DNA of 64,000 nt. It comes from Candidatus Eiseniibacteriota bacterium. Its GTDB lineage: Bacteria; Eisenbacteria; RBG-16-71-46. Positions 1-28,784 of the stretch are shown here, piece after piece. The stretch lies in assembly GCA_963717935.1 (NCBI GenBank), contig CAVQXP010000004.1, positions 726,423 through 790,422 of the forward strand, read 5' to 3'. The notes beneath the pieces are model-generated. The model saw only the letters and a list, made by a program, of their open reading frames with translations. It was not told the origin of the DNA and searched no databases. The position numbers were made by a program, and so were the translations under genes. Each line of letters opens with the position of its first letter. Position 1 is the stretch's first letter.

Positions 1-1230
1 GCCGCGCGGGCCGGGCTGCTGCCGAAGCACCCACCGGGGTCGCCGGGACCCGCCGAAGGTGGGTCCGGGTCCGGGTCCGGGGAGGGCGCGCCGGCGCTGG
101 CGGTGCTGGTGGCCTACAACGAGACCGTGGACCAGTACCTGATGCGGCACCCGGAGTACTTCTTCGGCCGTTCGCCCGAGGCCGCGGTGGTGGACCCGCA
201 CAACCCGTACATCCTGGCGCAGCAACTCGCCTGCGCGGCGCTACGAACTGCCACTGACGCCGCGGGGACGAGGCGGTGTTCGGGCCGCAGACCGCGGGCG
301 ATCCTCGCGGCGCTCGAGGAGGCGGGGGAGACGCGCACGATCGATGGCCACACCTACTGGGCGAAGACGGACTTCCCGGCCGCGACCGTCAGCCTGCGCA
401 CCATCTCGGACAACACCTACACCATCATGGACGTGACCCGCGGGAACGCGGTGATCGGCACGGTGGACGCGATCAGCGCGCTGGAGCTGGTCTACCCCGA
501 GGCGGTCTACCTGCACGAGGGCGAGACCTGGTTCGTGAAGCGGCTGGACCTCGAGCAGAAGACGGCGCTGGTCGAGCCGCGCGTGGTGGACTACTACACG
601 CAGCCGGTGCTCGACACGAGCATCCGCGTGCGCGGCGAGCTGCAGGCGAAGACCTGGCGCGGGGAGCGCGCCGTGCTGGGCGAGCTGACCTACTCGTGGC
701 AGACGGTGGCGATGAAGAAGGTCAAGTTCCACTCGCTCGACGCCATCGGCTACCATCCGCTCGACCTGCCGCGGCTCACCCTCGAGACCACGGGCTTCTG
801 GCTGGCGCCCGGCGAGGCCGCCTGGAACGCGGTCGCGCGCCGGGGCCTCAACCCGGTCGAGGGGCTGATGGGCGTGCGCAACCTGTTCATCACGCTGCTC
901 GCGATGCTCAGCATGTGCGATCCGGCCGACCTGGGGGGCAAGATCGATTCGTCGAACCTCGGGCGCCCGGCGCTGTTCATGTTCGACCGCTACCCCGGCA
1001 GGCTGGGTTTCTGCGAGCAGGGCTGGGCGCGTCTCGACGAACTGGCGCAGGCCGCGCTCGAGCACCTCGAGGCCTGCGAGTGCGAGGGCGGCTGCCCGGC
1101 CTGCGTCGGGCTGCCGACCCTATGGCCCGCGCAGCAGCAGGATCCGGATCTGCAGAAGGGCCGCGAGATCCCGGGCAAGGAGGCGGCGCGCACGCTGCTC
1201 CGTCACTGGCGAGGAGAAGAGGACCGATGA
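1..1230 (+). CDS. C-terminal part of a DEAD/DEAH-box helicase with a DUF1998 (MrfA/YprA-like) four-Cys module; 5' end lies outside the window
   Basis: Frame 1 is open from position 1. The C-terminal motif CECEGGCPACVG is the four-Cys zinc module typical of the DUF1998 domain at the end of YprA/MrfA-type helicases. Stop TGA at 1228-1230 overlaps the next ATG (ATGA). Confidence 0.7.
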   Translation, partial: AARAGLLPKHPPGSPGPAEGGSGSGSGEGAPALAVLVAYNETVDQYLMRHPEYFFGRSPEAAVVDPHNPYILAQQLACAALRTATDAAGTRRCSGRRPRAILAALEEAGETRTIDGHTYWAKTDFPAATVSLRTISDNTYTIMDVTRGNAVIGTVDAISALELVYPEAVYLHEGETWFVKRLDLEQKTALVEPRVVDYYTQPVLDTSIRVRGELQAKTWRGERAVLGELTYSWQTVAMKKVKFHSLDAIGYHPLDLPRLTLETTGFWLAPGEAAWNAVARRGLNPVEGLMGVRNLFITLLAMLSMCDPADLGGKIDSSNLGRPALFMFDRYPGRLGFCEQGWARLDELAQAALEHLEACECEGGCPACVGLPTLWPAQQQDPDLQKGREIPGKEAARTLLRHWRGEEDR

Positions 1231-1985
1231 ACTCCCACGAATGGCCGGTCGCGTTCTTCGACGACGACTACCTGCGCATCTACCGCGCCATGATCTCGCC
1301 CGAGATGACCGCGAGCGAAGTGGACTTCCTCGAGGCGGCGATGGCTCTGCCCGCAGGCGGCGAGGTGCTGGACGTGGCCTGCGGCTACGGGCGGCACGCC
1401 ATCGGGCTGGCACGGCGCGGCTACCGGGTGACGGGCGTGGACTTCAACCCGCACTACCTCGCGGCGGCGGCAGGACGACGCGACCGCCGTCGGGGCCACG
1501 GTGCGCTGGGTGGCGGCCGACATGCGTGCGCTGCCTTTCGAGCGCGCCTTCGACGGCGCCTACTCGTACTTCACCTCGTTCGGCTACTTCTCGGACGAGG
1601 AGAACGAACGAGTGCTGGCGGGGTGGCGCGCGCGCTCGGCCCGGCGGGCGGTTCCTGCTCGATGTGCTGAATCGCGACTGGATCCTCACCCACCCGCAGC
1701 AGCGGGTCTGGAACCCGCTCGAGGACGGCTCGCTGCTGATGGAGGAGACCTCGCTGGAACTGCGGCGCTCGCTGGTGATGAATCGCCAGATCCACGTCGC
1801 GCCGCAGAGCGGAGCGCAGATCACCAAGGAGTTCACGCTGCGCGCCTACACCTGCGCCGAGCTGGAATCGCTCTGCACGCGCCACGGGCTCGTGGTGCGC
1901 GAGGTCTGGGGCGGGGCCGACCGCAGCGAGTACACGACCGAGAGCCGCCGGCTGATCCTGCTGGCCGAGCGCGGGCGATCGCGAT
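1227..1985 (+). CDS. Class I SAM-dependent methyltransferase, read through two apparent 1-nt frame breaks (near 1462-1475 and 1620-1640)
   Basis: ATG at 1227. Motif I is EVLDVACGYGRHAIGLARRGYRVTGVDFNPHYL in frame 3. The post-I motif VRWVAADMRALPFERAFDGAYSYFTSFGYFSDEENERVLAG continues in frame 1. The C-terminal part APGGRFLLDVLNRDW...LILLAERG continues in frame 2. Both breaks sit in G/C-rich runs. Confidence 0.6.
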
Positions 1986-2047
1986 GGCTGATCCCGGGCC
2001 CGCTGCGTGCGCGGCTCGGCGAGCTGGCGCGCGCGCGGAAGGCACGC

Positions 2048-3010
2048 ATGGGCGTCGATCCAGCGCCGCAGACCGGAGATCCTGCAGGGGCGGCGGGGCT
2101 TGCACGGACCGGAAGGCGGCCAGGTGCGGACACGCTCGCCTTCCGATCCGTGTCTGCGCCCCGCCGCGGAGATGATCTGGCGGGTGCCCCGTCCGTGTCC
2201 GGGTCCCGCGGAGTGCCACCGGGCTTCTCCGCGCCGGCCGTGGGCGTCGAGGAGTTCCTGCCCGGCGGCGAGTGGCGCGACAGCCCCGACTTCACCGGCC
2301 GGCAGGGCGCCGTCTACGTGCACGAGCGGCTGCGCTCCGGGATCGAGAAGCGGAAGCCCCACTGGGGCCGCATCGAAGCGCCGCCGCCGCACGAGCCGGC
2401 GCTGGTCGCGCTGGCGGCGCGCGGGCTCGAGCACGCGCTGTTCCTCGACCTCGAGACCTGCGGGCTCGCTTCGAGCACGGTCTTCCTGGCCGGCACCATG
2501 CACTGGAACGGCGAGGACTTCGTGCTGCGGCAGTACTTCGCGCGCCACTACGGCGAGGAGGGGCCGCTCCTGCGGGCGCTCAACGAGTCCATGGCCGGCT
2601 TCGAGCACCTGGTGACCTTCAACGGCAGGACCTTCGACGTGCCCTTCCTGCGGGAGCGCGCCGTGGTGCACGGCGTGCGGCTCGCGCTTCCGCCGCACCA
2701 CCTCGACCTGCTCCACGCCGCGCGTCGGCGCTGGCGGGGCGAGTTCGCCGACTGCCGCCTGAAGACCCTCGAGAGCCGGGTCTGCCGGCGCCATCGGGTG
2801 GGAGACGTGCCCGGCGAGGAGATCCCGGGTCTCTACCACGACTACGTGAAGCACGGCGACCCGTACCGGCTCGTGCCGGTGTTCCACCACAACCTGCTCG
2901 ACGTCATCACCATGAGCGACATCCTGCGCGCCCTGTGTCGCCCGGCGCGTGTGGCGACTGCGCCCGGGTCCGGGTCCTGCGGGCCGAAGGGCGGGCGTGC
3001 CCGCCCTTAG
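2048..3010 (+). CDS. MrfB/YprB-like RNase-H-fold (PF13482-type) exonuclease; the start is uncertain and it may be fused to the upstream methyltransferase in the same frame
   Basis: The FLDLETCGL DEDD-like motif, the later NGRTFDVPFL motif, and the C-terminal HNLLDVITMSDILRAL are typical of the YprB family. A possible start ATG at 2048 has GGAAGG 7 nt upstream, but frame 2 is open all the way from the methyltransferase. Confidence 0.55.
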   Translation: MGVDPAPQTGDPAGAAGLARTGRRPGADTLAFRSVSAPRRGDDLAGAPSVSGSRGVPPGFSAPAVGVEEFLPGGEWRDSPDFTGRQGAVYVHERLRSGIEKRKPHWGRIEAPPPHEPALVALAARGLEHALFLDLETCGLASSTVFLAGTMHWNGEDFVLRQYFARHYGEEGPLLRALNESMAGFEHLVTFNGRTFDVPFLRERAVVHGVRLALPPHHLDLLHAARRRWRGEFADCRLKTLESRVCRRHRVGDVPGEEIPGLYHDYVKHGDPYRLVPVFHHNLLDVITMSDILRALCRPARVATAPGSGSCGPKGGRARP

Positions 3011-11573: not shown

Positions 11574-13735
11574 GCGTGTTCCACGTCGAGTTCCTGCCGT
11601 CGGGTGTGCCGGGTCCGGAGGGGATCGCCCACCTCGTGATGGACGACCCCACACGGCGGGTGAACGTCATCGACGAGCAGGCGCTCGGGGACCTCGAGTC
11701 CGCGCTCGAGCTGCTCGAAGGCCGGCCGGACCTCGGCGGGCTGGTCGTGCGGAGCGGCAAGCCCGGCACCTTCGTCGCCGGCGCCGACGTGGACGCGATC
11801 GCCGCACTCACGGACCGCGCGCTGGCGCTGGCCCTGGTCCGGCGCGCGCAGGCGGCCTTCGCGCGCCTGGCCGCGCTGCCCTTCCCGACGGTCGCGGCCA
11901 TCGACGGGCCCTGCCTGGGCGGGGGCACCGAGCTGGCGCTGGCCTGCCGCTCGCGCGTCGCCGCTCAGGAACCGCACACGCGGATCGGGTTGCCCGAGGT
12001 CCCGCTCGGCATCATCCCGGGCTCCGGCGGAACCACGCGCCTGCCGGGACTCGTGGGGCTCTCGACCGCGCTGGACCTCATCCTCACGGGTCGCACGCTG
12101 GACGCGCGGGGCGCCGAACGCGCGGGGCTGGTCGAGCGCGCGGTGCCCGGCGTGTGGCTCATCGAGCACGCGCACCGGCGCCTGGCCGAACTGGCGGCGC
12201 GCGGGCGGAGCCACGGGCGCGCCGGCGTCCGCTGGCGGCCGCGGGGACTGCGCTCGTGGTTCATGGATGGAACGCCGTTCGGGCGGGGCCTGACGTTCGC
12301 TCGCGCGCGGGCGATGACGAAGGCGCGCACCGGCGGGCACTACCCGGCGGCGGACGCCGCGCTCAGCGTCCTGCACCACGGCTTCGCCCAGCCCATCGAG
12401 GCTTCGCTGCGGCTCGAGGCCGAGTGGGTGAGCGACCTGATCGTCGGGCCGGTGTGCAAGAACCTGGTGCGCGGCTTCCGGCTCGCCGAGCGAGCGCGCA
12501 GGGAGTCGCTGCCCGGGATGGAGGAGGCAGCCCCCGTCGAGCGGCTCCAGGTCGTAGGTGCGGGGGCGATGGGCACCGGTGTCGCCGAACTCGCCAGCCG
12601 GCACGGGATCGAGGTGCGGCTGCGCGACACCGATCCGGCCGCGCTGGCGCGCGCGATGCGCGCGGTGCGCGCGCGCGTCGCCGAACGCTCGGGCCGGCCT
12701 GGGGCCGCGCGGCACGAGACCGAGGGGCAGCTCGCGCGCATCTTCCCCAGTCCGGATCTGGCCGGCCTGAAGCGCGCGGATCTCGCGATCGAGGCGGTGG
12801 TGGAGGATCTGGACGTCAAGCGCCGGGTGTTCGGCGAACTCGAGGTCCGCATGCGACCCGACGCGGTGCTGGCGACCAACACCTCCTCGCTCTCCGTGGA
12901 CGAGCTGGCCGCGGGGCTCGAGCGCCCGCAGCGCTTCGTCGGGATGCATTTCTTCAATCCGGTCCACCGCATGCCGCTGGTCGAGGTGGTGCGCGGCGCG
13001 AAGACGTCGGCAGTGGCGCTGGCCACGGCCGTCACGCTGGCGCGGCGGCTGGGCAGGACCCCGATCGTGGTGAACGACGGACCCGGGTTCGTCGTGAACC
13101 GGGTGCTGACGCCCTATCTGCGGGAGGCGTTTCACCTGGTCGAGGATGGCTACCGCGTGGCCGACGTGGACGCGGCCATGCGGGCCTTCGGCATGCCCAG
13201 GGGGCCCTTCGAGGTGATGGACGATGTGGGCCTCGGCGTCACCGCGAACGTGGCCGCGGTCCTGGGCCGGGCGTTCCCCGGGCGCGTCGCACCCGTGCCG
13301 CAACTCGACGCTCTGCTGAAGGCGGGGCTCCTGGGACGGAAGAGCGGCGCGGGGTTCTACCGTTACTGGAGTGGACGGCGCACGCTGGATCCGCTGGCCG
13401 CGCGGCTACTGCGTCCCGCGCGCGAGCGCCGACCCGCGAGCCTCGAGGTCCTCGCCGAGCGGATGACGCTCGCCATGGTGAACGAGGCCGCGCACTGCCT
13501 CGCCGATGGCGTGGTGGCGGACGCCGGGACGCTGGACCTGGCGCTGCTCTGCGGCGCCGGTTTCCCGCCCTACCGCGGCGGTCCGCTGCGCCACGCCGAC
13601 GCGCTGGGACTCGCCAGGGTGGAAGCCCGGCTGACGGCGCTGCGCGCCGAGAAGGGCGAGCGCTTCAAGCCCGCGCCGCTCATCGAGGAACTCGCGGCCC
13701 GGGGCGGAACGTTCACGGAGCCGGCGAGCGGGTAG
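11570..13735 (+). CDS. fadB: Fatty-acid oxidation complex alpha subunit (enoyl-CoA hydratase / 3-hydroxyacyl-CoA dehydrogenase)
   Basis: N-terminal crotonase fold FVAGADV...DGPCLGGGTELALAC. Central GAGAMGTG Rossmann motif. 721 aa. Confidence 0.85.
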   Translation: MSVFHVEFLPSGVPGPEGIAHLVMDDPTRRVNVIDEQALGDLESALELLEGRPDLGGLVVRSGKPGTFVAGADVDAIAALTDRALALALVRRAQAAFARLAALPFPTVAAIDGPCLGGGTELALACRSRVAAQEPHTRIGLPEVPLGIIPGSGGTTRLPGLVGLSTALDLILTGRTLDARGAERAGLVERAVPGVWLIEHAHRRLAELAARGRSHGRAGVRWRPRGLRSWFMDGTPFGRGLTFARARAMTKARTGGHYPAADAALSVLHHGFAQPIEASLRLEAEWVSDLIVGPVCKNLVRGFRLAERARRESLPGMEEAAPVERLQVVGAGAMGTGVAELASRHGIEVRLRDTDPAALARAMRAVRARVAERSGRPGAARHETEGQLARIFPSPDLAGLKRADLAIEAVVEDLDVKRRVFGELEVRMRPDAVLATNTSSLSVDELAAGLERPQRFVGMHFFNPVHRMPLVEVVRGAKTSAVALATAVTLARRLGRTPIVVNDGPGFVVNRVLTPYLREAFHLVEDGYRVADVDAAMRAFGMPRGPFEVMDDVGLGVTANVAAVLGRAFPGRVAPVPQLDALLKAGLLGRKSGAGFYRYWSGRRTLDPLAARLLRPARERRPASLEVLAERMTLAMVNEAAHCLADGVVADAGTLDLALLCGAGFPPYRGGPLRHADALGLARVEARLTALRAEKGERFKPAPLIEELAARGGTFTEPASG

Positions 13736-13740
13736 GCCCG

Positions 13741-13754
13741 CACCGCCGGCGGTG
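13741..13754 (+). terminator. Perfect 14-nt GC palindrome CACCGCCGGCGGTG 6 nt after the fadB stop; possible terminator hairpin
   Basis: The sequence is self-complementary. No U-tract follows. Confidence 0.3.
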
Positions 13755-14453
13755 GCCGCCCGGCGGCGCACGCTCCGACCGGAATGCGGAAACGCCCGGC
13801 TGGTGGGCCGGGCGTCTGCCGTGGGAGGCCGGAGCTTGCCCACTCCGGGACCCTGCTCGCAACTCTGGAACACTCGCACGACTGGCTAGCTCGCTCGCCA
13901 CGTTCTCGCGTACGTGACGCTACTATTGACGCTCCGAACGGCCGATAAGTTGCAACGCGCGCGCAAAGAACGCGGCGAAGGGGACCAGCGCGGTGGTGCG
14001 GGCGACGAAAGCCGCGTTCATTGGGGTTTTCGCGGGCCTTGCTTGACTTCCTGCTGACCTCGGGCATAGTTGATTCGGGTTTTCGGGCCCACCCCCATGG
14101 GGGGGCACACGGGTCCGACGGCTGTTCCCCCGCTTACCGCGGCCGTCCGGCCGCGCGACCCGAGCGCGGGGGTGCTGACGGGAGCACCGGTACACGGCCA
14201 TGGATCTGCTGTCGCGCTCGAGGGGCTCGTCGCCTGACCGGGAGACGGGTTCTTTTCATTGGTGCGCGGGTGGCCACGGCCCGGCCGTGTCTTTCGCCCG
14301 ATTCTCCGCGGCGGCGTTCGCGCCGGCGCGGTACCTGATCCGGCTGGCTCCGCGCCATGCGGGCCGGACCGACTTCGCCGTTCCTACCGCCGTTGGGCAC
14401 TCCGACACGCACGTCGTCGCGGTCGCCCCCGGCCGGGCTTCCAGGAGAGACTC

Positions 14454-15740
14454 ATGAGCACGAAGGGGTTCAATTCGTTCGAGATCGCCCAGGCCCAGTT
14501 CGACCAGGTCGCCGCACTGCTCGATCTGGACGCCGGGACGCGCGAGTTCCTGCGCTGGCCGATGCGGGAGTACGCCTTCAGCATCCCGGTGCGCATGGAC
14601 GACGGGCACGTGAAGGTCTTCCGCGGCTTCCGCGTGCAGCACAACGACGCCCGCGGACCCTCGAAGGGTGGCATCCGCTTCCACCCGCAGGAGACCGTGG
14701 ACACGGTGCGCGCCCTCTCCATGTGGATGACCTGGAAGTGCGCGGTGGTGGACATCCCGCTGGGCGGCGGCAAGGGCGGCGTGATCTGCGACCCGCACAA
14801 CCTGAGTGCCCGCGAGCAGGAGCAGATCTGCCGTGGCTGGGTGCGGCAGCTGGTGCGCAACGTGGGTCCGGTCCAGGACGTCCCGGCGCCCGACGTCATG
14901 ACCAACGCGCAGCACATGCTGTGGATGCTCGACGAGTTCGAGGCGGTGCGCGGCGGCCGCTACCCCGGGTTCATCACCGGCAAGCCCGTCGGCCTGGGTG
15001 GCTCGCTGGGGCGCACCGAAGCGACCGGCTACGGCGTGGTCTTCACGCTGCGCGAGGCGCTGCGCGAGCACGGCGTCGCGGTCGAATCCACGCGCGCCAG
15101 CGTGCAGGGCTTCGGCAACGTGTCCCAGTACGCCATCCGGCTCTACGAGCAGCTCGGCGGCAAGGTCATCTGCGTGTCCTCGTGGGACCAGAAGGACCAG
15201 GCCTCGTATTCCTTCAAGCGGGTCTCCGGCGTGGACATGGACCAGCTGGTGGGCATCACCGACGTCTTCGGCGGCATCGACAAGGAGAAGGCGAAGAAGC
15301 TCGGCTACGAGGTGCTGCCGGGCGACGCGTGGATCGAGCAGCCGGTCGAGATCCTGATGCCCTGCGCGCTCGAGAACCAGATCACGCCCGTGACCGTGAA
15401 GAAGATCCACGCGGCCGTGAAGTTCGTGGCCGAGGGCGCCAATGGTCCCACCACCACCGAGGCCGACGCGGTGCTCAAGGACCGGGGGATCTACCTGATC
15501 CCGGACTTCCTGGCCAACGCGGGCGGCGTGACCTGCAGCTACTTCGAGCAGGTGCAGTGCAACATGAACTACTACTGGGACAAGGACGAGGTGCTGGGCA
15601 AGCTCGACAGCAAGATGACCTCGGCCTTCCTCGCGGTGAGCGAGCTGGCGCGCGAGCGCAAGCTGTACATGCGTGACGCCGCCTATGTCATCGCCATCAA
15701 CCGCGTCGCCCAGGCCTGCAAGGACCGCGGCTGGGTGTGA
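14454..15740 (+). CDS. gdhA: NAD(P)-dependent glutamate dehydrogenase
   Basis: Catalytic Lys motif PSKGGIRFH. Glycine-rich DIPLGGGKGGV. AGGAGA lies 5 nt before the ATG at 14454. Confidence 0.85.
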   Translation: MSTKGFNSFEIAQAQFDQVAALLDLDAGTREFLRWPMREYAFSIPVRMDDGHVKVFRGFRVQHNDARGPSKGGIRFHPQETVDTVRALSMWMTWKCAVVDIPLGGGKGGVICDPHNLSAREQEQICRGWVRQLVRNVGPVQDVPAPDVMTNAQHMLWMLDEFEAVRGGRYPGFITGKPVGLGGSLGRTEATGYGVVFTLREALREHGVAVESTRASVQGFGNVSQYAIRLYEQLGGKVICVSSWDQKDQASYSFKRVSGVDMDQLVGITDVFGGIDKEKAKKLGYEVLPGDAWIEQPVEILMPCALENQITPVTVKKIHAAVKFVAEGANGPTTTEADAVLKDRGIYLIPDFLANAGGVTCSYFEQVQCNMNYYWDKDEVLGKLDSKMTSAFLAVSELARERKLYMRDAAYVIAINRVAQACKDRGWV

Positions 15741-15792
15741 CGGCGGGAGCCGGGGCGGCGCGCGACGCCGCCCCGGCGACGCGGTCCCGACC

Positions 15793-17595
15793 ATGAACAG
15801 CGACGCTACGGGCGGCCAGGGGTTGCCGCGGTTCGACCGCCGCTTCTTCGAGGGGCGGGAGACCTTCACCACCATCGGCTCGGGCGCTCTCGGGGGCAAG
15901 GCCTCGGGATTGCTCGCCGCGCGTGAAGCGCTGGCGGACCGGCCGGCGGCCCTGCGCCATGAGGACCTGGAGATCTCGGTCCCGACGCTCACCGTGATCA
16001 CCACCAACGCGTTCGACCTGTTCCTCGAGCGTAACCGCCTCCACGAGCTGGTCTACTCGGGCTCCGACGACCGCCAGATCGCGGCCGCGCTGCAGCGAGC
16101 GGAGCTTCCCACGGAGATCGTGGGCGACCTGTGGGCGCTCGTCCGGCGGGTCCACACGCCGCTGGCGGTGCGCTCTTCGAGCCTGCTCGAGGACGCGCTG
16201 GCGCACCCGTTCGCCGGCGTGTACGCGACCAAGATGATCCCCAACAACCCGCACGACCCCGAGACCCGCTTTCGCAAGCTGGTCGAGGCGGTCAAGTTCG
16301 TCTACGCCTCGACCTTCTTCCGCGCGGCGCGCACCTACGTGCGCGTGGCCGGCCGGAAGCCGGAGGAGGAGAAGATGGCGGTGATCGTGCAGGAGGTGGT
16401 GGGGCACCGGCACGGCCCGCGCTTCTACCCCGAGGTCGCGGGGGTGGCCCGCTCGTGGAACTTCTACCCGACGGGACACGCGCAGCCGGCCGACGGTGTG
16501 CTGGACCTGGCGCTCGGTCTGGGCCGGACCATCGTGGACGGCGGGCGCGCGTGGACCTGCTCGCCCGCCCACCCGCGCTCGGTGCCGCCGTTCAACTCGG
16601 TGGGCCACATGATCGAGCAGAGCCAGAGCGAGTTCTGGGCGGTGAACATGGGCCCGCCTCCGGCGTACGACCCCACGATCGAGACGGAATACCTGGTGCA
16701 GGCGGGCCTCGCCGACGCCGAGGCGGACGGGACGCTGGTCCACGTCGCCTCGACCTACGACCCCGACTCGGACCGCGTCGTCATGGGGGTGGGATCCAGC
16801 GGCCCGCGCATCGTGGATTTCGCGCCGATGCTGCGGCTGGCGCGGTGGCCGGTGATCGAGGCGGTGCGCGGCCTGCTCGCGCTCTTCGCCGCCCGCCTGG
16901 GCGCCCCCGTGGAGATCGAGTTCGCGCTCACCTTCCCCGACCCGTCTGCGAAGGGTGCCCGGCCTTCCCCCGGCGCCCCGGAGGGCCTCCCCGCCCGCCT
17001 GGGCTTCCTGCAGGTGCGGCCGATGCTGGTCAGCAGCCAGACGGTCGAGATCGGGGAGGATGAACTTGCCGGTCCGCGGGCCGTGGTGCGCTCCGAGCAC
17101 GTCATGGGGAACGGGGTCATCGAGGGCCTCCGCGATGTCGTGTACGTGAAGCCCGAGGTCTTCGAGGCGCGCCATACGCCGGCGATCGCCGCGGAGGTGG
17201 ACCGCCTGAACCAGGCGCTGGTCGAGGAGGGCCGGTCCTGCGTGCTGGTCGGCTTCGGCCGCTGGGGCAGCGCCGATCCCTGGCTGGGCATCCCGGTCGA
17301 GTGGGCCCAGATCGCGAGCGCACGCGTCATCGTCGAGGCGAGCCTGCCGGCCATGAACGTGGACATGAGCCAGGGCGCGCATTTCTTTCACAACCTGCTG
17401 AGCTTCCGCGTGGTCTACTTCTCCGTGCCGGGCCTCGACGCGTCGGGGATCGACTGGGAGTGGCTGCGCGGGCTCCCGGCCCGGCGGGAGACCGATTTCG
17501 TACGGCACGTGGAGACGCCGGCGCCCCTGCTCGTGAGGGTGGACGGCCGCCGGGGCCGGGGTGTGGTGCTGCGCGGCATGGGGGGGGACGCATGA
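15793..17595 (+). CDS. PEP/pyruvate-binding (PPDK_N, ATP-grasp-like) domain protein
   Basis: VRSSSLLEDALAHPFAGVYATK and MAVIVQEVVGHRHGPRFYPEVAGVARS match the nucleotide-binding domain of PEP synthase / pyruvate phosphate dikinase. Starts 53 nt after gdhA. Confidence 0.65.
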   Translation: MNSDATGGQGLPRFDRRFFEGRETFTTIGSGALGGKASGLLAAREALADRPAALRHEDLEISVPTLTVITTNAFDLFLERNRLHELVYSGSDDRQIAAALQRAELPTEIVGDLWALVRRVHTPLAVRSSSLLEDALAHPFAGVYATKMIPNNPHDPETRFRKLVEAVKFVYASTFFRAARTYVRVAGRKPEEEKMAVIVQEVVGHRHGPRFYPEVAGVARSWNFYPTGHAQPADGVLDLALGLGRTIVDGGRAWTCSPAHPRSVPPFNSVGHMIEQSQSEFWAVNMGPPPAYDPTIETEYLVQAGLADAEADGTLVHVASTYDPDSDRVVMGVGSSGPRIVDFAPMLRLARWPVIEAVRGLLALFAARLGAPVEIEFALTFPDPSAKGARPSPGAPEGLPARLGFLQVRPMLVSSQTVEIGEDELAGPRAVVRSEHVMGNGVIEGLRDVVYVKPEVFEARHTPAIAAEVDRLNQALVEEGRSCVLVGFGRWGSADPWLGIPVEWAQIASARVIVEASLPAMNVDMSQGAHFFHNLLSFRVVYFSVPGLDASGIDWEWLRGLPARRETDFVRHVETPAPLLVRVDGRRGRGVVLRGMGGDA

Positions 17596-23706: not shown

Positions 23707-24282
23707 GATCCAGCCTCCTCGAGCACGCCGACGTAGGGCAGGTTCCGGTACCGCTCGACGTCGTCCATCCCATAGCCGACCACGAACTCCTTGCCGATCT
23801 TCCAGCCCGAGTAGTCCACGGGTACCTGGATCCTGCGGCAAGGCACCTTGTCGAGCAAGGTCGCGACCCGCAGGCTCGCGGGGCGCCGCCGCTTCAGCAC
23901 GTCGAGCAGGAACGATACGCTCAGGCCGGAGTCCACCACGCCCTCGCAGAGCACCACGTGGCGGTCCGCGACGTCCTCGCGCAGGTCCATCAGCAGGCGC
24001 ACGTTGCCGCTCGACGTCTTTCCGGCGCCGTAGGACGAGACCGAGACGAAGTCGAGGTCCAGGTCGATGGGCGTGGCGCGCGCCAGGTCGCACTGGAACA
24101 TGCAGGCGCCCTTCAGCACCCCGACGAACAGCGGACGTTTGTCCTCGTAGTCGCGCGCCAGCTCCAGTCCGAGCTCGCGCAGGCGCCGGGCGATCTGCTC
24201 GGCGCGTGAACATGACCCGCATGACGGGACCCGTACCCGGGACGATGGCTTCGGCGTGGTCGGCTGGCTGGCTCTCAGTCAT
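23703..24282 (-). CDS. hpt: Hypoxanthine-guanine phosphoribosyltransferase, with one frame break near 24200
   Basis: VLCEGVVDSGLSVSFLLDVL PRPP motif and FVVGYGMDDVERYRNLPYVGVL at the C-terminus. The N-terminal part ...QIARRLRELGLELARDYEDKRPLFVGVLKGA is in an adjacent frame. Confidence 0.75.
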
Positions 24283-25653
24283 GGCGCTCCGCGTGGACCC
24301 AGAGGGCCCTCCGGGTGCCGGCGGTCACCGGCGCGCGCGCCGCGCGGCGCACGCCCACCACCCAGAGGATCCCCCCGGCGTCGGCTAGGACCGTGGGGTA
24401 CTTGCGAATGTCGTTCGAGACTCTCTGCTTGCTCAAAAACCGTCCGAGGTGCGCCGCGCGGGTCCGTCCGAATGGTACGAACCGTTCGTCGGCCCGTGCC
24501 CGCCGCACCACCAGCGGCCCAGCGAGGTCATCGGCGGCGAAGAACTCGCCCGTGCCGGAGCCCGTTGCCATGCGCCGCCGCGCCACCGCTCCGGTGGTCC
24601 AGCGCGCCGCGAGGCGCGCCCCCTCCCACTCGAGCCGGCCCGGAAGCCGGAGACGCGCCTGCGCGAGGCGCCGCTTCGGAGCCCCGCTGCGGAGGCGGAT
24701 GACGTCCCGGTCGCGCTCTGCCGACCAGCCCCCGGGAAGGTGGATAATGGCTCCCCCGCGCGCCCTGTCAATCAGCCCGTCGAGCGCGGCCAGATGCCGG
24801 CGCGTCAGGCCGGTCGCGTGCGGCCCTGTCCGCTGCCACAATCCGGCCGAGGACGGTCAGTCTCAACCCGGTGGGAAGGGTCGCCAGGCGGCGGGCTTCG
24901 AGGGTGGCCATCCCGGGTTGGATGCGGCCCGCCCGGCCGAGGACGCGCCCGGCGAGGGCCTCCAGCGCCCGGGCCGCGACGAGGGTCCCGGCCGCAGCCC
25001 GGGCGGCCCGCCTCGCCAGGAGCGCCCGCCCGCGGGTCGGGTCGAGGCCCGGCAGCAGCGCCCGCGTCAGCGCGGGGACCGCCTCGTGGCGCACGCGGCT
25101 GCGGGTGTAGCGCGGGTCGCGGTTCGAGCGATCCTCGCGCCAGGTCTGGCCGGCCCGGACCAGGTCGGCCTCGATCTCGGCCCGCGTGGCGCCGAGGAGC
25201 GGCTTGAGCCAGAGCATGCGTTCGCCCGGTCCGTCTCCCGTGGCAAGCGCCGGCCTCATGCCCGGCAGCCCGCTGAGCCCGGTGCCGCGGGCGAGACGCA
25301 TGAGCAGCGTCTCGAGTTGGTCGTCGGCCGTGTGGGCCGTGACGATGGCGCATGCCCCCGCGCGCCGCGCGGCGGCAAGCAGGAACTCCCGCCGCAGCGC
25401 GCGCAGGCCGGCCTGGCCGGAGAGCCCACGGCGGCGCAGGCGCGCACGGGTGTCCCAGCGCGCCGCGATGAGCGGCACTCCCAGGCGTGCTGCAGAGCCC
25501 GTGCACGAATTCGAGGTCCGCGTCGGCCTCGGCCCCGCGCAGGCCATGGTGCAGGTGCGCGGCGTGCAACCGCAGGCCCAGGACGCAGGACAGGCGGGCC
25601 ATGCCGATGAGGAGGGCGGTCGAGTCCGCGCCACCGCTCACCGCGACGAGCAT
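24275..25653 (-). CDS. tilS: tRNA(Ile)-lysidine synthetase, with at least two frame breaks
   Basis: PP-loop LVAVSGGADSTALL at the N-terminus. TAHTADDQLETLLMRLARGTG in the middle. C-terminal domain ...DRDVIRL. tilS-hpt-ftsH is a conserved gene order in many bacteria. Confidence 0.7.
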
Positions 25654-25754: not shown

Positions 25755-25830
25755 TGGTGGCGGCGCAGGGACTCGAACCCCGGACACAGAGATTATGATT
25801 CTCCTGCTCTACCAGCTGAGCTACGCCGCC
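25755..25830 (-). tRNA. tRNA with CAU anticodon (elongator tRNA-Met most likely), 76 nt with encoded CCA
   Basis: Reverse complement: GGCGGCGTAGCTCAGCTGGTAGAGCAGGAGAATCATAATCTCTGTGTCCGGGGTTCGAGTCCCTGCGCCGCCACCA. Clean cloverleaf. Paired 1:72, so not an initiator tRNA. Confidence 0.85.
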
Positions 25831-25954: not shown

Positions 25955-26731
25955 CTACCCGCAGTACTCCTTCGGGCCCTGCTCGAGCATCCAGCGCCAC
26001 ACGGTCCGCATCGTCAGCAGGTCGTCGGCGTTGGAGCCCGCGACTTCCCGCAGGATGCGCTCGCGTTCGGCGGGGTCGTTGCTCGCCCGCGCCCTCCGGT
26101 ACTGGACGATGGACCAGGCCGGGCCCGAATCCGGGTTCTGCCGGCGGAAGCCCGCATGGCCGGCCATCCGCCGGATCGAGCAGGAGTCGGGCGACAGCCG
26201 CACGGCGCGCCGCACGCCCCGGGAGAGCAGCTCGAAGAGCGCCTCCTCCAGACGCTCGAGGAAGCCGGCTGGCGTGTCGCAGGCGGCGGCGTATGCCCGC
26301 AGCCAGGCCTTCTCGCGGGACGAGCCGTGCACCCAGCGCGCGTCGGGGAACCCCTCGAGGATCTGGCCAGCGCGCGCGACGAAGCGCCCCCACGCCCGCC
26401 TGCCGCCACGGTCCTCGAAATCGGCGGTGATGGCTTCGGGCCTGGGCGCGTGCCTGCCGTCGTCCACGGCAAGCCCCCAGAGGTGGATCGCGCGGTCCGC
26501 CTGCCCGCCCTCGTGGCCCCCGTCGAGGGCGAGCCACACGACCGGCCAGGGGGGCAACTGCGGTGGCGAGATCCAGACCCGATCCGGTCCGGGCCGCGCG
26601 AGCCACGGATGCCGCTCGCGCGCGTCGAGCGGGGGGAACGTGCCGGCCGGGACGCGGCCGCCGGGGGGTGGTTCGGGGGTCCCTGGTGGTTCGAGCAAAG
26701 GCGTGGTGGGATCGGGCGTGGCGCTCATCAT
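25955..26731 (-). CDS. YprB/RNase_H_2-fold paralog with the catalytic acidic residues replaced (probable inactive exonuclease-like protein)
   Basis: It aligns by eye to the exonuclease at 2400-3010. WLALDGGHEG matches FLDLETCGL. IHLWGLAVDDGR matches VFLAGTMHWNGED. The C-terminal ILREVAGSNADDLLTMRTVWRWM matches HNLLDVITMSDILRAL. Confidence 0.5.
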   Translation of the reverse strand: MMSATPDPTTPLLEPPGTPEPPPGGRVPAGTFPPLDARERHPWLARPGPDRVWISPPQLPPWPVVWLALDGGHEGGQADRAIHLWGLAVDDGRHAPRPEAITADFEDRGGRRAWGRFVARAGQILEGFPDARWVHGSSREKAWLRAYAAACDTPAGFLERLEEALFELLSRGVRRAVRLSPDSCSIRRMAGHAGFRRQNPDSGPAWSIVQYRRARASNDPAERERILREVAGSNADDLLTMRTVWRWMLEQGPKEYCG

Positions 26732-27081: not shown

Positions 27082-27891
27082 GTGACGATGAAGATGCCCC
27101 GGCTTCTCATCGGGCTGATGCTCGCCCTGCTGCTCCTGGCGCCGATCCCGTCCGGAGCGGTGGCGGCGAAGCGACCGGTCCACGCGGCGCGCGACACCGC
27201 GATGGTGCTCATCCCTGCCGGTGAGTTCGTGATGGGCCGCGAGGGGACCGGGGACAACAGCCCGGCGCACGCGGTGCGCATCCGAGCCTTCAGCCTCGAC
27301 CGTTGCGAGGTGACGAATGCGGAGTACGCGGCGTTCTGCCAGGCCACCGGCAGATCGCTCCCGTTCTTCTGGGGCCTCGACCGCTTCCGCTCGGGACCGA
27401 AATACCCGGACCACCCGGTGATCGGCGTGAACTCGGGCGATGCGCGGGAGTACGCGGAATGGCGCGGGAAGAGGCTCCCCACCGAGGCCGAATGGGAGTA
27501 CGCCGCGCGCGGGGGGCTTGCGGGGATGAGATACGTGAACGGCAACACGCTGGATTCGTCGAAGGTGAACTTCACACGCTCGCAACGGAACGGCCCGGTT
27601 GCGGTCGGCTCCTACGAGTCCAACGGCTATGGGCTCTACGACATGGCGGGCAACGTCCAGGAATGGGTCGCCGACCGGTACGGCGCCGAGTACTACAAGA
27701 CCAGTCCGGCCGAAGATCCGCAGGGACCGGAGAAGGGCCGGCTCCGCGTGATCCGCGGCGGTGGCTGGTTCACCGGGCCGATGTGCATGGACGTGGACAT
27801 CCGCTACGCGCTGCACTCGAACTGGGTGGACTTCAACGTCGGTTTCCGCTGCGCGAGGGACGCGGAGCCAGGGCCGACGCAGCCGAAGTAG
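27082..27891 (+). CDS. Secreted formylglycine-generating-enzyme (SUMF1/FGE) family protein
   Basis: Signal peptide. RLPTEAEWEYAARGG...YGLYDMAGNVQEWV...RVIRGGGW FGE-sulfatase domain signatures. Confidence 0.75.
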   Translation: MTMKMPRLLIGLMLALLLLAPIPSGAVAAKRPVHAARDTAMVLIPAGEFVMGREGTGDNSPAHAVRIRAFSLDRCEVTNAEYAAFCQATGRSLPFFWGLDRFRSGPKYPDHPVIGVNSGDAREYAEWRGKRLPTEAEWEYAARGGLAGMRYVNGNTLDSSKVNFTRSQRNGPVAVGSYESNGYGLYDMAGNVQEWVADRYGAEYYKTSPAEDPQGPEKGRLRVIRGGGWFTGPMCMDVDIRYALHSNWVDFNVGFRCARDAEPGPTQPK

Positions 27892-27965: not shown

Positions 27966-28784
27966 CTACTCGGCCGTCCCCGCGGCCGCCTCGCCGTCCG
28001 CCAGGGGCGCGGACGGTGACACCTCCTCCTCGGGACGCAGGTGGAAGATGCGAGACAGTTCGCTGCGCAGCGCACCACTGTCGAGGTGCTGCTTGAGCGT
28101 CCCGCGGTAGGCGACCGAGATGCCGCCGCTCTCCTCGCTCACCACGACGATGGCGGCATCGGACTCCTCGGAGAGGCCCAGGGCCGCGCGATGCCGCGTG
28201 CCGAGGGCGAACGCCAGCTTGAGGTCGGACGAGAGCGGCAGGATGCAGGAGGCCGCGACCACCGCGTCCTCGCGCAGGATGACCGCGCCGTCGTGGAGCG
28301 GCGAGCCGGGCGAGAACAGCGTCACCAGCAGCTCGGCCGTGACCTTGGCGTCCAGCCGCGTGCCGGTCTCGACGAAGTTCCTCAGGCCGGTGTTGCGTTC
28401 GATCACCATGAGCGCCCCCTGGCGCTTCTCGCCCAGGGTCTCGGCCGCTCGCACCACCTCGCCCAGGACGCCGTAGGAGTCGCCGCGCAGGAACGAGCGG
28501 AAGTAGCGCGTGCGCCCGAACTGGGCGAGCACGTGCCGCAGCTCGGGCTGGAAGAGGATGACGAAGGCGATCAGCCAGATGGTCTTGACGCTGTCCACGA
28601 TCCACTTGACCGCGATCAGGTCGAAGGCGCGGGCGAACAGCCCCACGAGCACGATGAGCAGCAGCCCGACGTACATCTGTCCGGAGCGCGTGCCCTTCAC
28701 CAGCACGAGGAGCCGGTAGAAGAGCAGCGCGACGAGGAAGATGTCGAGCAGGTCGAGCAGCCAGATCTGGTGAACGGGCGTCAT
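27966..28784 (-). CDS. cdaA: Diadenylate cyclase CdaA (c-di-AMP synthase)
   Basis: N-terminal transmembrane helices. DAC domain GALMVIER...DGAVIL...LGTRHRAALGLSEESDAAIVVVSEESGGIS. Confidence 0.85.
   Translation of the reverse strand: MTPVHQIWLLDLLDIFLVALLFYRLLVLVKGTRSGQMYVGLLLIVLVGLFARAFDLIAVKWIVDSVKTIWLIAFVILFQPELRHVLAQFGRTRYFRSFLRGDSYGVLGEVVRAAETLGEKRQGALMVIERNTGLRNFVETGTRLDAKVTAELLVTLFSPGSPLHDGAVILREDAVVAASCILPLSSDLKLAFALGTRHRAALGLSEESDAAIVVVSEESGGISVAYRGTLKQHLDSGALRSELSRIFHLRPEEEVSPSAPLADGEAAAGTAE

Follow-up and report, generated by a model that had tools for sequence, protein, structure and literature searches.

The PF13482 exonucleases were split into separate clusters next to the PolB exonucleases in a classification of the RNase H-like superfamily (Majorek et al., PMC3985635). 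One of them, cluster F.10, corresponds to COG3359 and often has TPR repeats after the exonuclease domain; another, cluster F.13, corresponds to COG2251, represents the "RecB family" type, in which a DUF83/Cas4-like domain is present, and was called uncharacterized (PMC3985635). COG3359 includes MrfB (YprB), a DEDDh exonuclease of mitomycin repair with a known structure (8un9). For the TM0106 family (TIGR03491; COG2251), no functional study was found in the literature searched, and only the superfamily classification covers this subfamily. Here, we analyzed a gene at 25955..26731 (minus strand) of a stretch of 64,000 nucleotides from Candidatus Eiseniibacteriota (contig CAVQXP010000004.1), which in its full length is called the window. 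The gene encodes a protein of 258 amino acids (stop codon 25955-25957) and is the positional ortholog of a TM0106-family (TIGR03491/COG2251) gene of about 500 codons that has suffered an internal deletion. The window carries one gene from each cluster, a COG3359/MrfB-type gene (F.10) and a COG2251/TM0106-type gene (F.13). The best overall explanation, which we consider probable, is that the 258-aa protein is a reduced and catalytically decayed TM0106 ortholog, likely either kept as a non-catalytic fold or slowly fading as a relic.

The 258-aa open reading frame (ORF) is a genuine coding frame, unlike many spurious ORFs in high-GC DNA, because its GC contents at the three codon positions (GC1/2/3 = 0.73/0.59/0.91; window GC 71.6%) resemble those of well-supported neighbours. 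An earlier note on this DNA, made from the sequence alone, had placed the ORF at exactly these coordinates on the minus strand; this was confirmed, and the coding signature is strong. A protein of identical sequence exists in the database (P0001), and 51 short orthologs were found besides. The same note had advised checking for a frame break that hides an upstream extension. None was present: the frame is closed by a stop codon four codons before the ATG, and the 350-bp spacer upstream of the gene, up to the divergent FGE-sulfatase gene, was devoid of similarity to the missing domain in all frames. A scan for sigma-70 promoters and terminators between 25600 and 27200 gave no match and was uninformative at 72% GC.

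The relationship to the TM0106 family became apparent from profile and homolog searches. The 258-aa protein has the DEDD/PolB exonuclease-like RNase H fold of PF13482, yet Pfam gave no match even at E ≤ 1 and the gathering score of PF13482 (22 bits) was not reached, whereas its full-length orthologs reach 39-53 bits. When PDB sequences were searched with a profile, only a spurious dehydrogenase match (E = 0.57) was returned. In contrast, NCBIfam TIGR03491 (TM0106 family RecB-like putative nuclease) matched residues 105-248 with profile positions 328-462 of 462 (E = 4.4e-8). The score of 32.5 bits is below the cutoff of 97.45 bits; the full-length orthologs P0057, P0063, P0068, P0093 and P0099 score 169-184 bits. 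An initial homolog search yielded 52 short proteins of about 180-260 aa (48-72% identical, plus the identical record) and three longer ones, and a profile search added many proteins of about 500 aa that are 60-68% identical over the C-terminal 80% of the window protein. These long relatives are as close to the window protein as the short forms are among themselves, and they carry both PF01930 (Cas4) and PF13482. All short and long relatives stem from metagenome-assembled genomes (MAGs) of Candidatus Eisenbacteria or from metagenomes. PADLOC left the 258-aa protein unmatched and recognized only the Cas4/DruK-like N-terminal domain of the full-length relatives.

A tblastn comparison of the full-length relative P0057 with the window located the difference between the two forms. 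Residues 1-49 of P0057 match residues 1-49 of the window protein with 51% identity and residues 296-502 match residues 52-258 with 68% identity. The two high-scoring segment pairs (HSPs) lie in the same frame of the 258-aa ORF, two codons apart, and residues 50-295 of P0057 have no counterpart anywhere in the 64-kb window. The two in-frame flanking matches and the absence of anything matching the part between them therefore indicate an in-frame deletion of about 246 ancestral residues (roughly 50-295), with its junction at 26579..26584 (minus strand). The lost Cas4-like PD-(D/E)XK domain was not found in the ORF, in any frame of the 350-bp spacer or elsewhere in the window (tblastn), but it is present in the sister clade with an E/D/D/K motif and a cysteine motif. 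The latter comprises three invariant cysteines in the full-length proteins and a fourth, N-terminal one where the N-terminus is present. What remains in the window protein is an N-terminal remnant (residues 1-49; 26585..26731, minus strand), which evolves fast and is predicted to be disordered (pLDDT about 50), and a catalytically degenerate domain with a DEDDy-type 3′-5′ exonuclease fold (residues 52-258; 25958..26578, minus strand).

The deletion junction is similar across all short loci. In a neighbor-joining (NJ) tree of the C-terminal domain, the short forms are monophyletic and sister to the full-length clade P0056-P0064, a topology that fits a presumed single ancestral deletion event for the short clade. 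The genomic context points in the same direction. Every Eisenbacteria locus with enough flanking sequence has the gene order folP - cdaA - (a gene of the FGE-sulfatase family in some) - X - tRNA(CAT) - tilS - hpt - ftsH, in which X is either a short or a long gene. Because one or the other fills the same slot in each of these loci, the 258-aa gene can be regarded as the positional ortholog of the full-length TM0106 gene. Descent from the TM0106 family is thus indicated by sequence, by a phylogeny in which the short forms are nested among full-length members, by synteny, and by the common N-terminal leader. In a pattern-based scan of short-clade genomes, the only one of its kind that was made, a single locus per genome was detected. 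We also considered an assembly artefact as the cause of the short form, as the adjacent tilS is frame-broken, and rejected it in view of nine independent loci with the same short architecture. A frame problem was observed in one full-length ortholog, P0101 (533 aa, on a 264-kb ENA contig), whose exonuclease domain is shifted after about residue 410 by either a frameshift or an assembly error.

The catalytic centre was analyzed by comparing short and long forms (numbering according to the window protein). In the full-length relatives, D68, E70, E140, Y233, N234 and D237 are invariant in 46 of 46 sequences, and the set D-E-E-Y-D is also kept in the distant TM0106 representatives checked, down to about 21% identity, with the exceptions P0116 and P0190, in which motif III is disrupted. 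The centre of the TM0106 family is of the DEDDy type with a glutamate at the third position. The window protein departs from the DEDDy/DEDDh pentad with A68, D70, E140, S233 and D237. The remnant of motif I (ancestral D-x-E) is A68-L69-D70 (26522..26530, minus strand, translation ALD), with the metal-bridging aspartate replaced by alanine, and the remnant of motif III (ancestral Y-N-x-D-D) is S233-N-A-D-D237 (26021..26035, minus strand, translation SNADD), with the general-base tyrosine replaced by serine. The acidic residue of motif II, E140 (26312..26314, minus strand), is retained; its assignment is based on the family alignment and on its position at the start of helix αB (residues 138-150), which follows a strand at residues 132-135.

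The other short forms show the same losses. Position 68 is never aspartate in 51 true short forms (alanine in 38, glycine in 5, otherwise V, R, T, L or S) and position 233, mostly serine, is never tyrosine. Position 70 is acidic in about 84% of the short forms, E140 is kept in 49 of 52 (94%) as well as in all 46 long forms, position 236 is acidic in 49 of 52, and position 237 is aspartate in about 31 of 52 (~60%) and N, E, H, G, T, K or R in the remaining 40%. Long forms have 42 positions with a conservation of 90% or more. Of these, the short forms keep 32, mostly W, F, L, V, P and G of the core plus H135, E140 and R242. The ten lost positions (D68, D72, E76, Y83, Y147, D167, K187, W206, Y233 and D236) are all polar or aromatic. 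The pattern is that of a fold that was kept while its active and substrate sites decayed. The degenerate centre that the earlier note had described therefore holds across 51 relatives, but its details need revision. A change of motif I from DxE to DGG had been proposed; the register was off by two, as FLDLE/WFDLE aligns with WLALD, which gives Asp to Ala68 and Glu to Asp70. Motif II had been regarded as replaced, although the E140 within HGSSREKAWL is the conserved acid, and the exchange of Y233 for serine had been overlooked.

Selection on the short form was estimated from nine distinct short DNA loci, in all of which the C-terminal domain is intact in a single frame. The ratio of non-synonymous to synonymous change (omega, dN/dS; Nei-Gojobori method, NG86), pooled over four independent short pairs, was 0.51 (bootstrap 95% confidence interval (CI) 0.42-0.62), compared to 0.17 (0.14-0.21) for five close full-length pairs. 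The N-terminal remnant changes faster than the exonuclease domain (dN 0.42, omega 0.62), and when loci with the same CdaA identity are compared, the divergence of the exonuclease domain is about two times larger among short than among long forms. Single substitutions that create a stop codon make up 3.1% of those in the short domain, and at pairwise dS values of 0.23-0.73 the probability of finding no stop under neutrality ranges from 0.15 to 0.001 per lineage, indels uncounted. The indels seen among the short forms are all in frame, and 25 columns are invariant among 52 sequences, including the single-codon tryptophans W114, W133, W245 and W247. Constraint on the short domain is relaxed about threefold, but not absent, and these data show that the 258-aa protein persists in folded form and that purifying selection on it is weakened.

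Based on these results, we propose the following course of events. The ancestor would have been a protein of about 500 aa with an N-terminal Cas4-like PD-(D/E)XK nuclease carrying a cysteine motif, a linker, and a C-terminal DEDDy 3′-5′ exonuclease. One in-frame deletion, in the ancestor shared by the members of a single clade, would have removed the Cas4-like domain, the cysteine motif and the linker, leaving the original start region (about 49 codons, now disordered) and the exonuclease domain. The exonuclease centre would then have decayed, as the metal-bridging aspartate and the general-base tyrosine are lost in every short member and further polar residues (D72, E76, Y83, K187 and W206), none of which varies in the full-length relatives, are lost as well. 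The short protein would most likely persist because its exonuclease fold has a non-catalytic role, be it as a binding or scaffold surface or in a residual structural function; otherwise the protein would be a slowly fading relic.

Two other explanations start from the same residues and the same loss of constraint. A stand-alone exonuclease freed from the Cas4-like domain might still be active with a modified catalytic set (D70, E140 and D236/D237), as three to four acidic residues persist near the former active site, with E140 and the acidic position 236 being almost always kept. Moreover, the D172A and D262A variants of MrfB keep some activity with single-stranded DNA (ssDNA) (PMC11194089). 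However, the aspartate lost in all short members is the equivalent of MrfB D107, a presumed contributor to both Mg2+ sites, and the D107A variant, like E109A and H258A, loses activity (PMC11194089). The general-base tyrosine is gone in all members too, and the replacements are not fixed, with seven different residues at position 68 and frequent exchange of D237, which is a pattern of relaxation rather than of a new catalytic solution. We therefore hold an active enzyme to be very improbable, and the 258-aa protein is, as far as its residues tell, most likely unable to hydrolyse nucleic acid. Relaxation of this kind might alternatively mark a non-functional pseudogene, i.e., an ORF not yet destroyed in a genome of 72% GC where stop codons are rare. 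A major domain and catalytic residues are lost or variable, non-synonymous change is 2-3 times faster, the start position and the N-terminus differ between loci, and Pfam no longer recognizes the protein. This possibility is unlikely, though less so than an active enzyme, since the pooled omega has an upper confidence limit of 0.62, the invariant columns include tryptophans that have only a single codon, nine loci are intact in one frame despite their synonymous divergence, the neutral probability of escaping a stop is at most 0.15 per lineage even before indels are counted, and no observed indel breaks the frame. Several points nevertheless weigh against our preferred reading of a decayed TM0106 ortholog kept as a fold. 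The inactivity is deduced from residues only; D70, E140 and D237 plus D236 remain acidic in the window protein, and residual metal binding or weak activity may persist. NG86 is crude at a GC3 of about 0.9, and since the omega values (0.5, and 0.87 for the pair of the window and L012) are close to neutrality, much of the short protein may be unconstrained. Furthermore, because the parent TM0106 family is without known function, no specific non-catalytic role can be named for the short protein.

The explanation put forward in the earlier note was a different one, namely that the gene is an inactive paralog of the exonuclease at 2400-3010, acting as its partner, decoy or regulator. At its start (103..3010, plus strand), the window encodes the C-terminal portion of a helicase resembling MrfA/YprA, with a Cys-rich CECEGGCPAC motif, followed by a stretch resembling S-adenosylmethionine (SAM) methyltransferases in another frame and by the MrfB-like PF13482 exonuclease. 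The MrfB/YprB-type domain comprises residues 400-565 of the 589-aa ORF 1241..3010, i.e., 2438..2935 on the plus strand (E = 4.7e-30, 105 bits), and this ORF appears to be frame-mixed upstream of it. Both proteins do have the PF13482/DEDD fold, the centre of the 258-aa protein is degenerate, and in a MAFFT alignment of the MrfB-like domain with the TM0106 family motifs I and III could be aligned, motif II not reliably so. The MrfB-like domain itself has intact D-E-D-H-D motifs (FLDLE, FD, HHNLLD). Yet the proposed block-for-block likeness was statistically undetectable: BLASTP of the 258-aa protein against the 2300-3010 product gave only a non-colinear match of 25 aa (E = 0.02), and hhalign against the MrfB-like domain gave a probability below 1% with family profiles of 52 and 100 sequences. 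By comparison, the three longer TM0106-type relatives are far closer (phmmer E 1e-34 to 1e-37 with a single-sequence query), the orthologs of about 500 aa reach profile E-values down to about 1e-115 and occupy the same chromosomal position, and the N-terminal remnant matches the TM0106 N-terminus. The two subfamilies form separate clusters in PMC3985635, and the 258-aa gene lies 23 kb from the MrfB-like gene and likewise from the MrfA-like gene, with no operon link. A paralog of the MrfB-like enzyme is thus the least probable of the alternatives and hardly credible. The 258-aa gene does not derive from the MrfB-like domain at 2438..2935, and nothing was found that links it functionally to the MrfAB-like genes with which the window begins. 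The 258-aa gene is related to the window's MrfB-like exonuclease at the superfamily level only, a homology that rests on transitive and structural evidence because the direct comparisons were not significant. What stands of the earlier proposal is a PF13482-superfamily exonuclease fold with an inactivated centre, a probable pseudo-nuclease whose degeneracy is consistent in relatives; the kinship as an MrfB-like paralog does not.

As to function, the short protein most likely represents a relic that no longer catalyses and is only weakly selected. It is conceivable, but rather doubtful, that it is a genuine pseudo-enzyme kept because the TM0106 exonuclease fold has a task other than catalysis, such as holding the 3′ end of DNA or RNA or binding a protein partner encoded in the conserved surroundings of cdaA, tRNA(CAT), tilS, hpt and ftsH. 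In that case, one clade of Eisenbacteria would represent a natural separation-of-function mutant, and the widespread two-nuclease TM0106 family would have a role independent of both nuclease activities.

The location beside a tRNA and the tilS-hpt-ftsH block, which had been recognized earlier, holds true. Directly downstream of the 258-aa gene and before tilS, ARAGORN found a tRNA with a CAT anticodon (25755..25830, minus strand). It is at the same position, directly upstream of tilS, in 14 of 14 Eisenbacteria loci (L001, L002, L004, L007-L009, L011-L013, L016, L019, L023, L028 and L035). It is of the elongator type (G1-C72, not initiator) and, instead of the tRNA-Met of the ARAGORN label, might represent the TilS substrate tRNA-Ile2(CAU). 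The tilS gene (~24275..25653, minus strand) is split over at least two frames, with tblastn HSPs for query residues 1-289 and 266-479 in different frames and overlapping ORFs at 24768..25634, 24805..25653 and 24275..24841, which points to an indel of the assembly or else to a genuine frameshift. Upstream, the conserved anchor of the slot is the diadenylate cyclase gene cdaA (27966..28784, minus strand). Between cdaA and the 258-aa gene, a divergent gene of the FGE-sulfatase family (27082..27891, plus strand) forms a variable insertion: it is present in seven short loci (the window, L001, L002, L004, L012, L015 and L032) and absent in L013, L016 and L021. In addition, an upstream match was seen at the full-length locus L018 and a weaker match at L061. 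Insertion of this gene as the cause of the deletion was rejected, as short forms occur both with and without it and it also accompanies the full-length L018. In locus L009, the ftsH gene (12319..17220; MAG contig JBFONE010000563.1) encodes a product of 1633 aa with an intein (Intein_splicing and LAGLIDADG) in the AAA domain.

The search for the TM0106/COG2251 family matched 363 representative clusters (E ≤ 0.001). In a separate full-length clade (P0053, P0055, P0069-P0076, P0082, P0083, P0085, P0087 and P0088), the Cas4-like motif is degenerate, with PDF changed to PAF and DAK to DVR, whereas the cysteines and the DEDDy pentad are intact, which is the reciprocal of the domain inactivation in the window. 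Additional domains were observed in two proteins. The distant relative P0176 (901 aa) has DUF3322 and JetD_C, as in the Wadjet JetD nuclease subunit, fused to a TM0106-type RNase_H_2 domain with intact D-E-E-Y-D, and P0123 has an Mrr_cat restriction-endonuclease domain added at the N-terminus.

In summary, the 258-aa gene is a clade-specific variant, with a deleted domain and a degenerate catalytic site, of a family that is known but uncharacterised, and represents no new system or mechanism; it is otherwise an ordinary single gene from an uncultured phylum. It offers a clear example of reductive evolution in the TM0106 family, in which one nuclease domain was deleted and the centre of the other was lost while the fold was kept under measurable selection. 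As the second clade appears to have inactivated the Cas4-like domain only, these natural domain variants could be useful to experimenters asking for the contribution of each domain. They also call for caution with annotation, since many of the short proteins carry the JGI label "predicted RecB family nuclease" although they lack the RecB domain and probably nuclease activity.

Compared with the TM0106 family (TIGR03491; COG2251; cluster F.13, PMC3985635), the 258-aa protein has a homologous C-terminal domain, 60-68% identical to that of the Eisenbacteria members, together with the chromosomal slot and the N-terminal leader of the long genes, but it is without the Cas4-like domain, cysteine motif and linker, and D68 and Y233 are missing from the five invariant residues of the exonuclease centre. 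With MrfB/YprB (COG3359) it has only motifs I and III in alignable form. It belongs to another subfamily, is derived from a DEDDy rather than a DEDDh enzyme, has neither a TPR domain nor any other sequence after the exonuclease domain, has no MrfA neighbour, lacks significant similarity, and is devoid of the catalytic aspartate and general base. A further parallel is provided by inactivated exonuclease domains of the DEDD/PolB type, i.e., those of the catalytic subunits of Pol alpha and Pol zeta, the EXO-like domain of Exuperantia, and EXD1. Exuperantia and EXD1 are non-catalytic binding modules. The domain of POLA1 was called an inactive exonuclease domain (PMC11194089). In all of these the fold is kept and the catalytic residues are lost, as in the short protein, but the likeness is one of analogy and not of close kinship. 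These domains have documented structural or RNA-binding roles, unlike the short protein, and only in the latter does the inactivation follow the loss of a partner nuclease domain from the same polypeptide.
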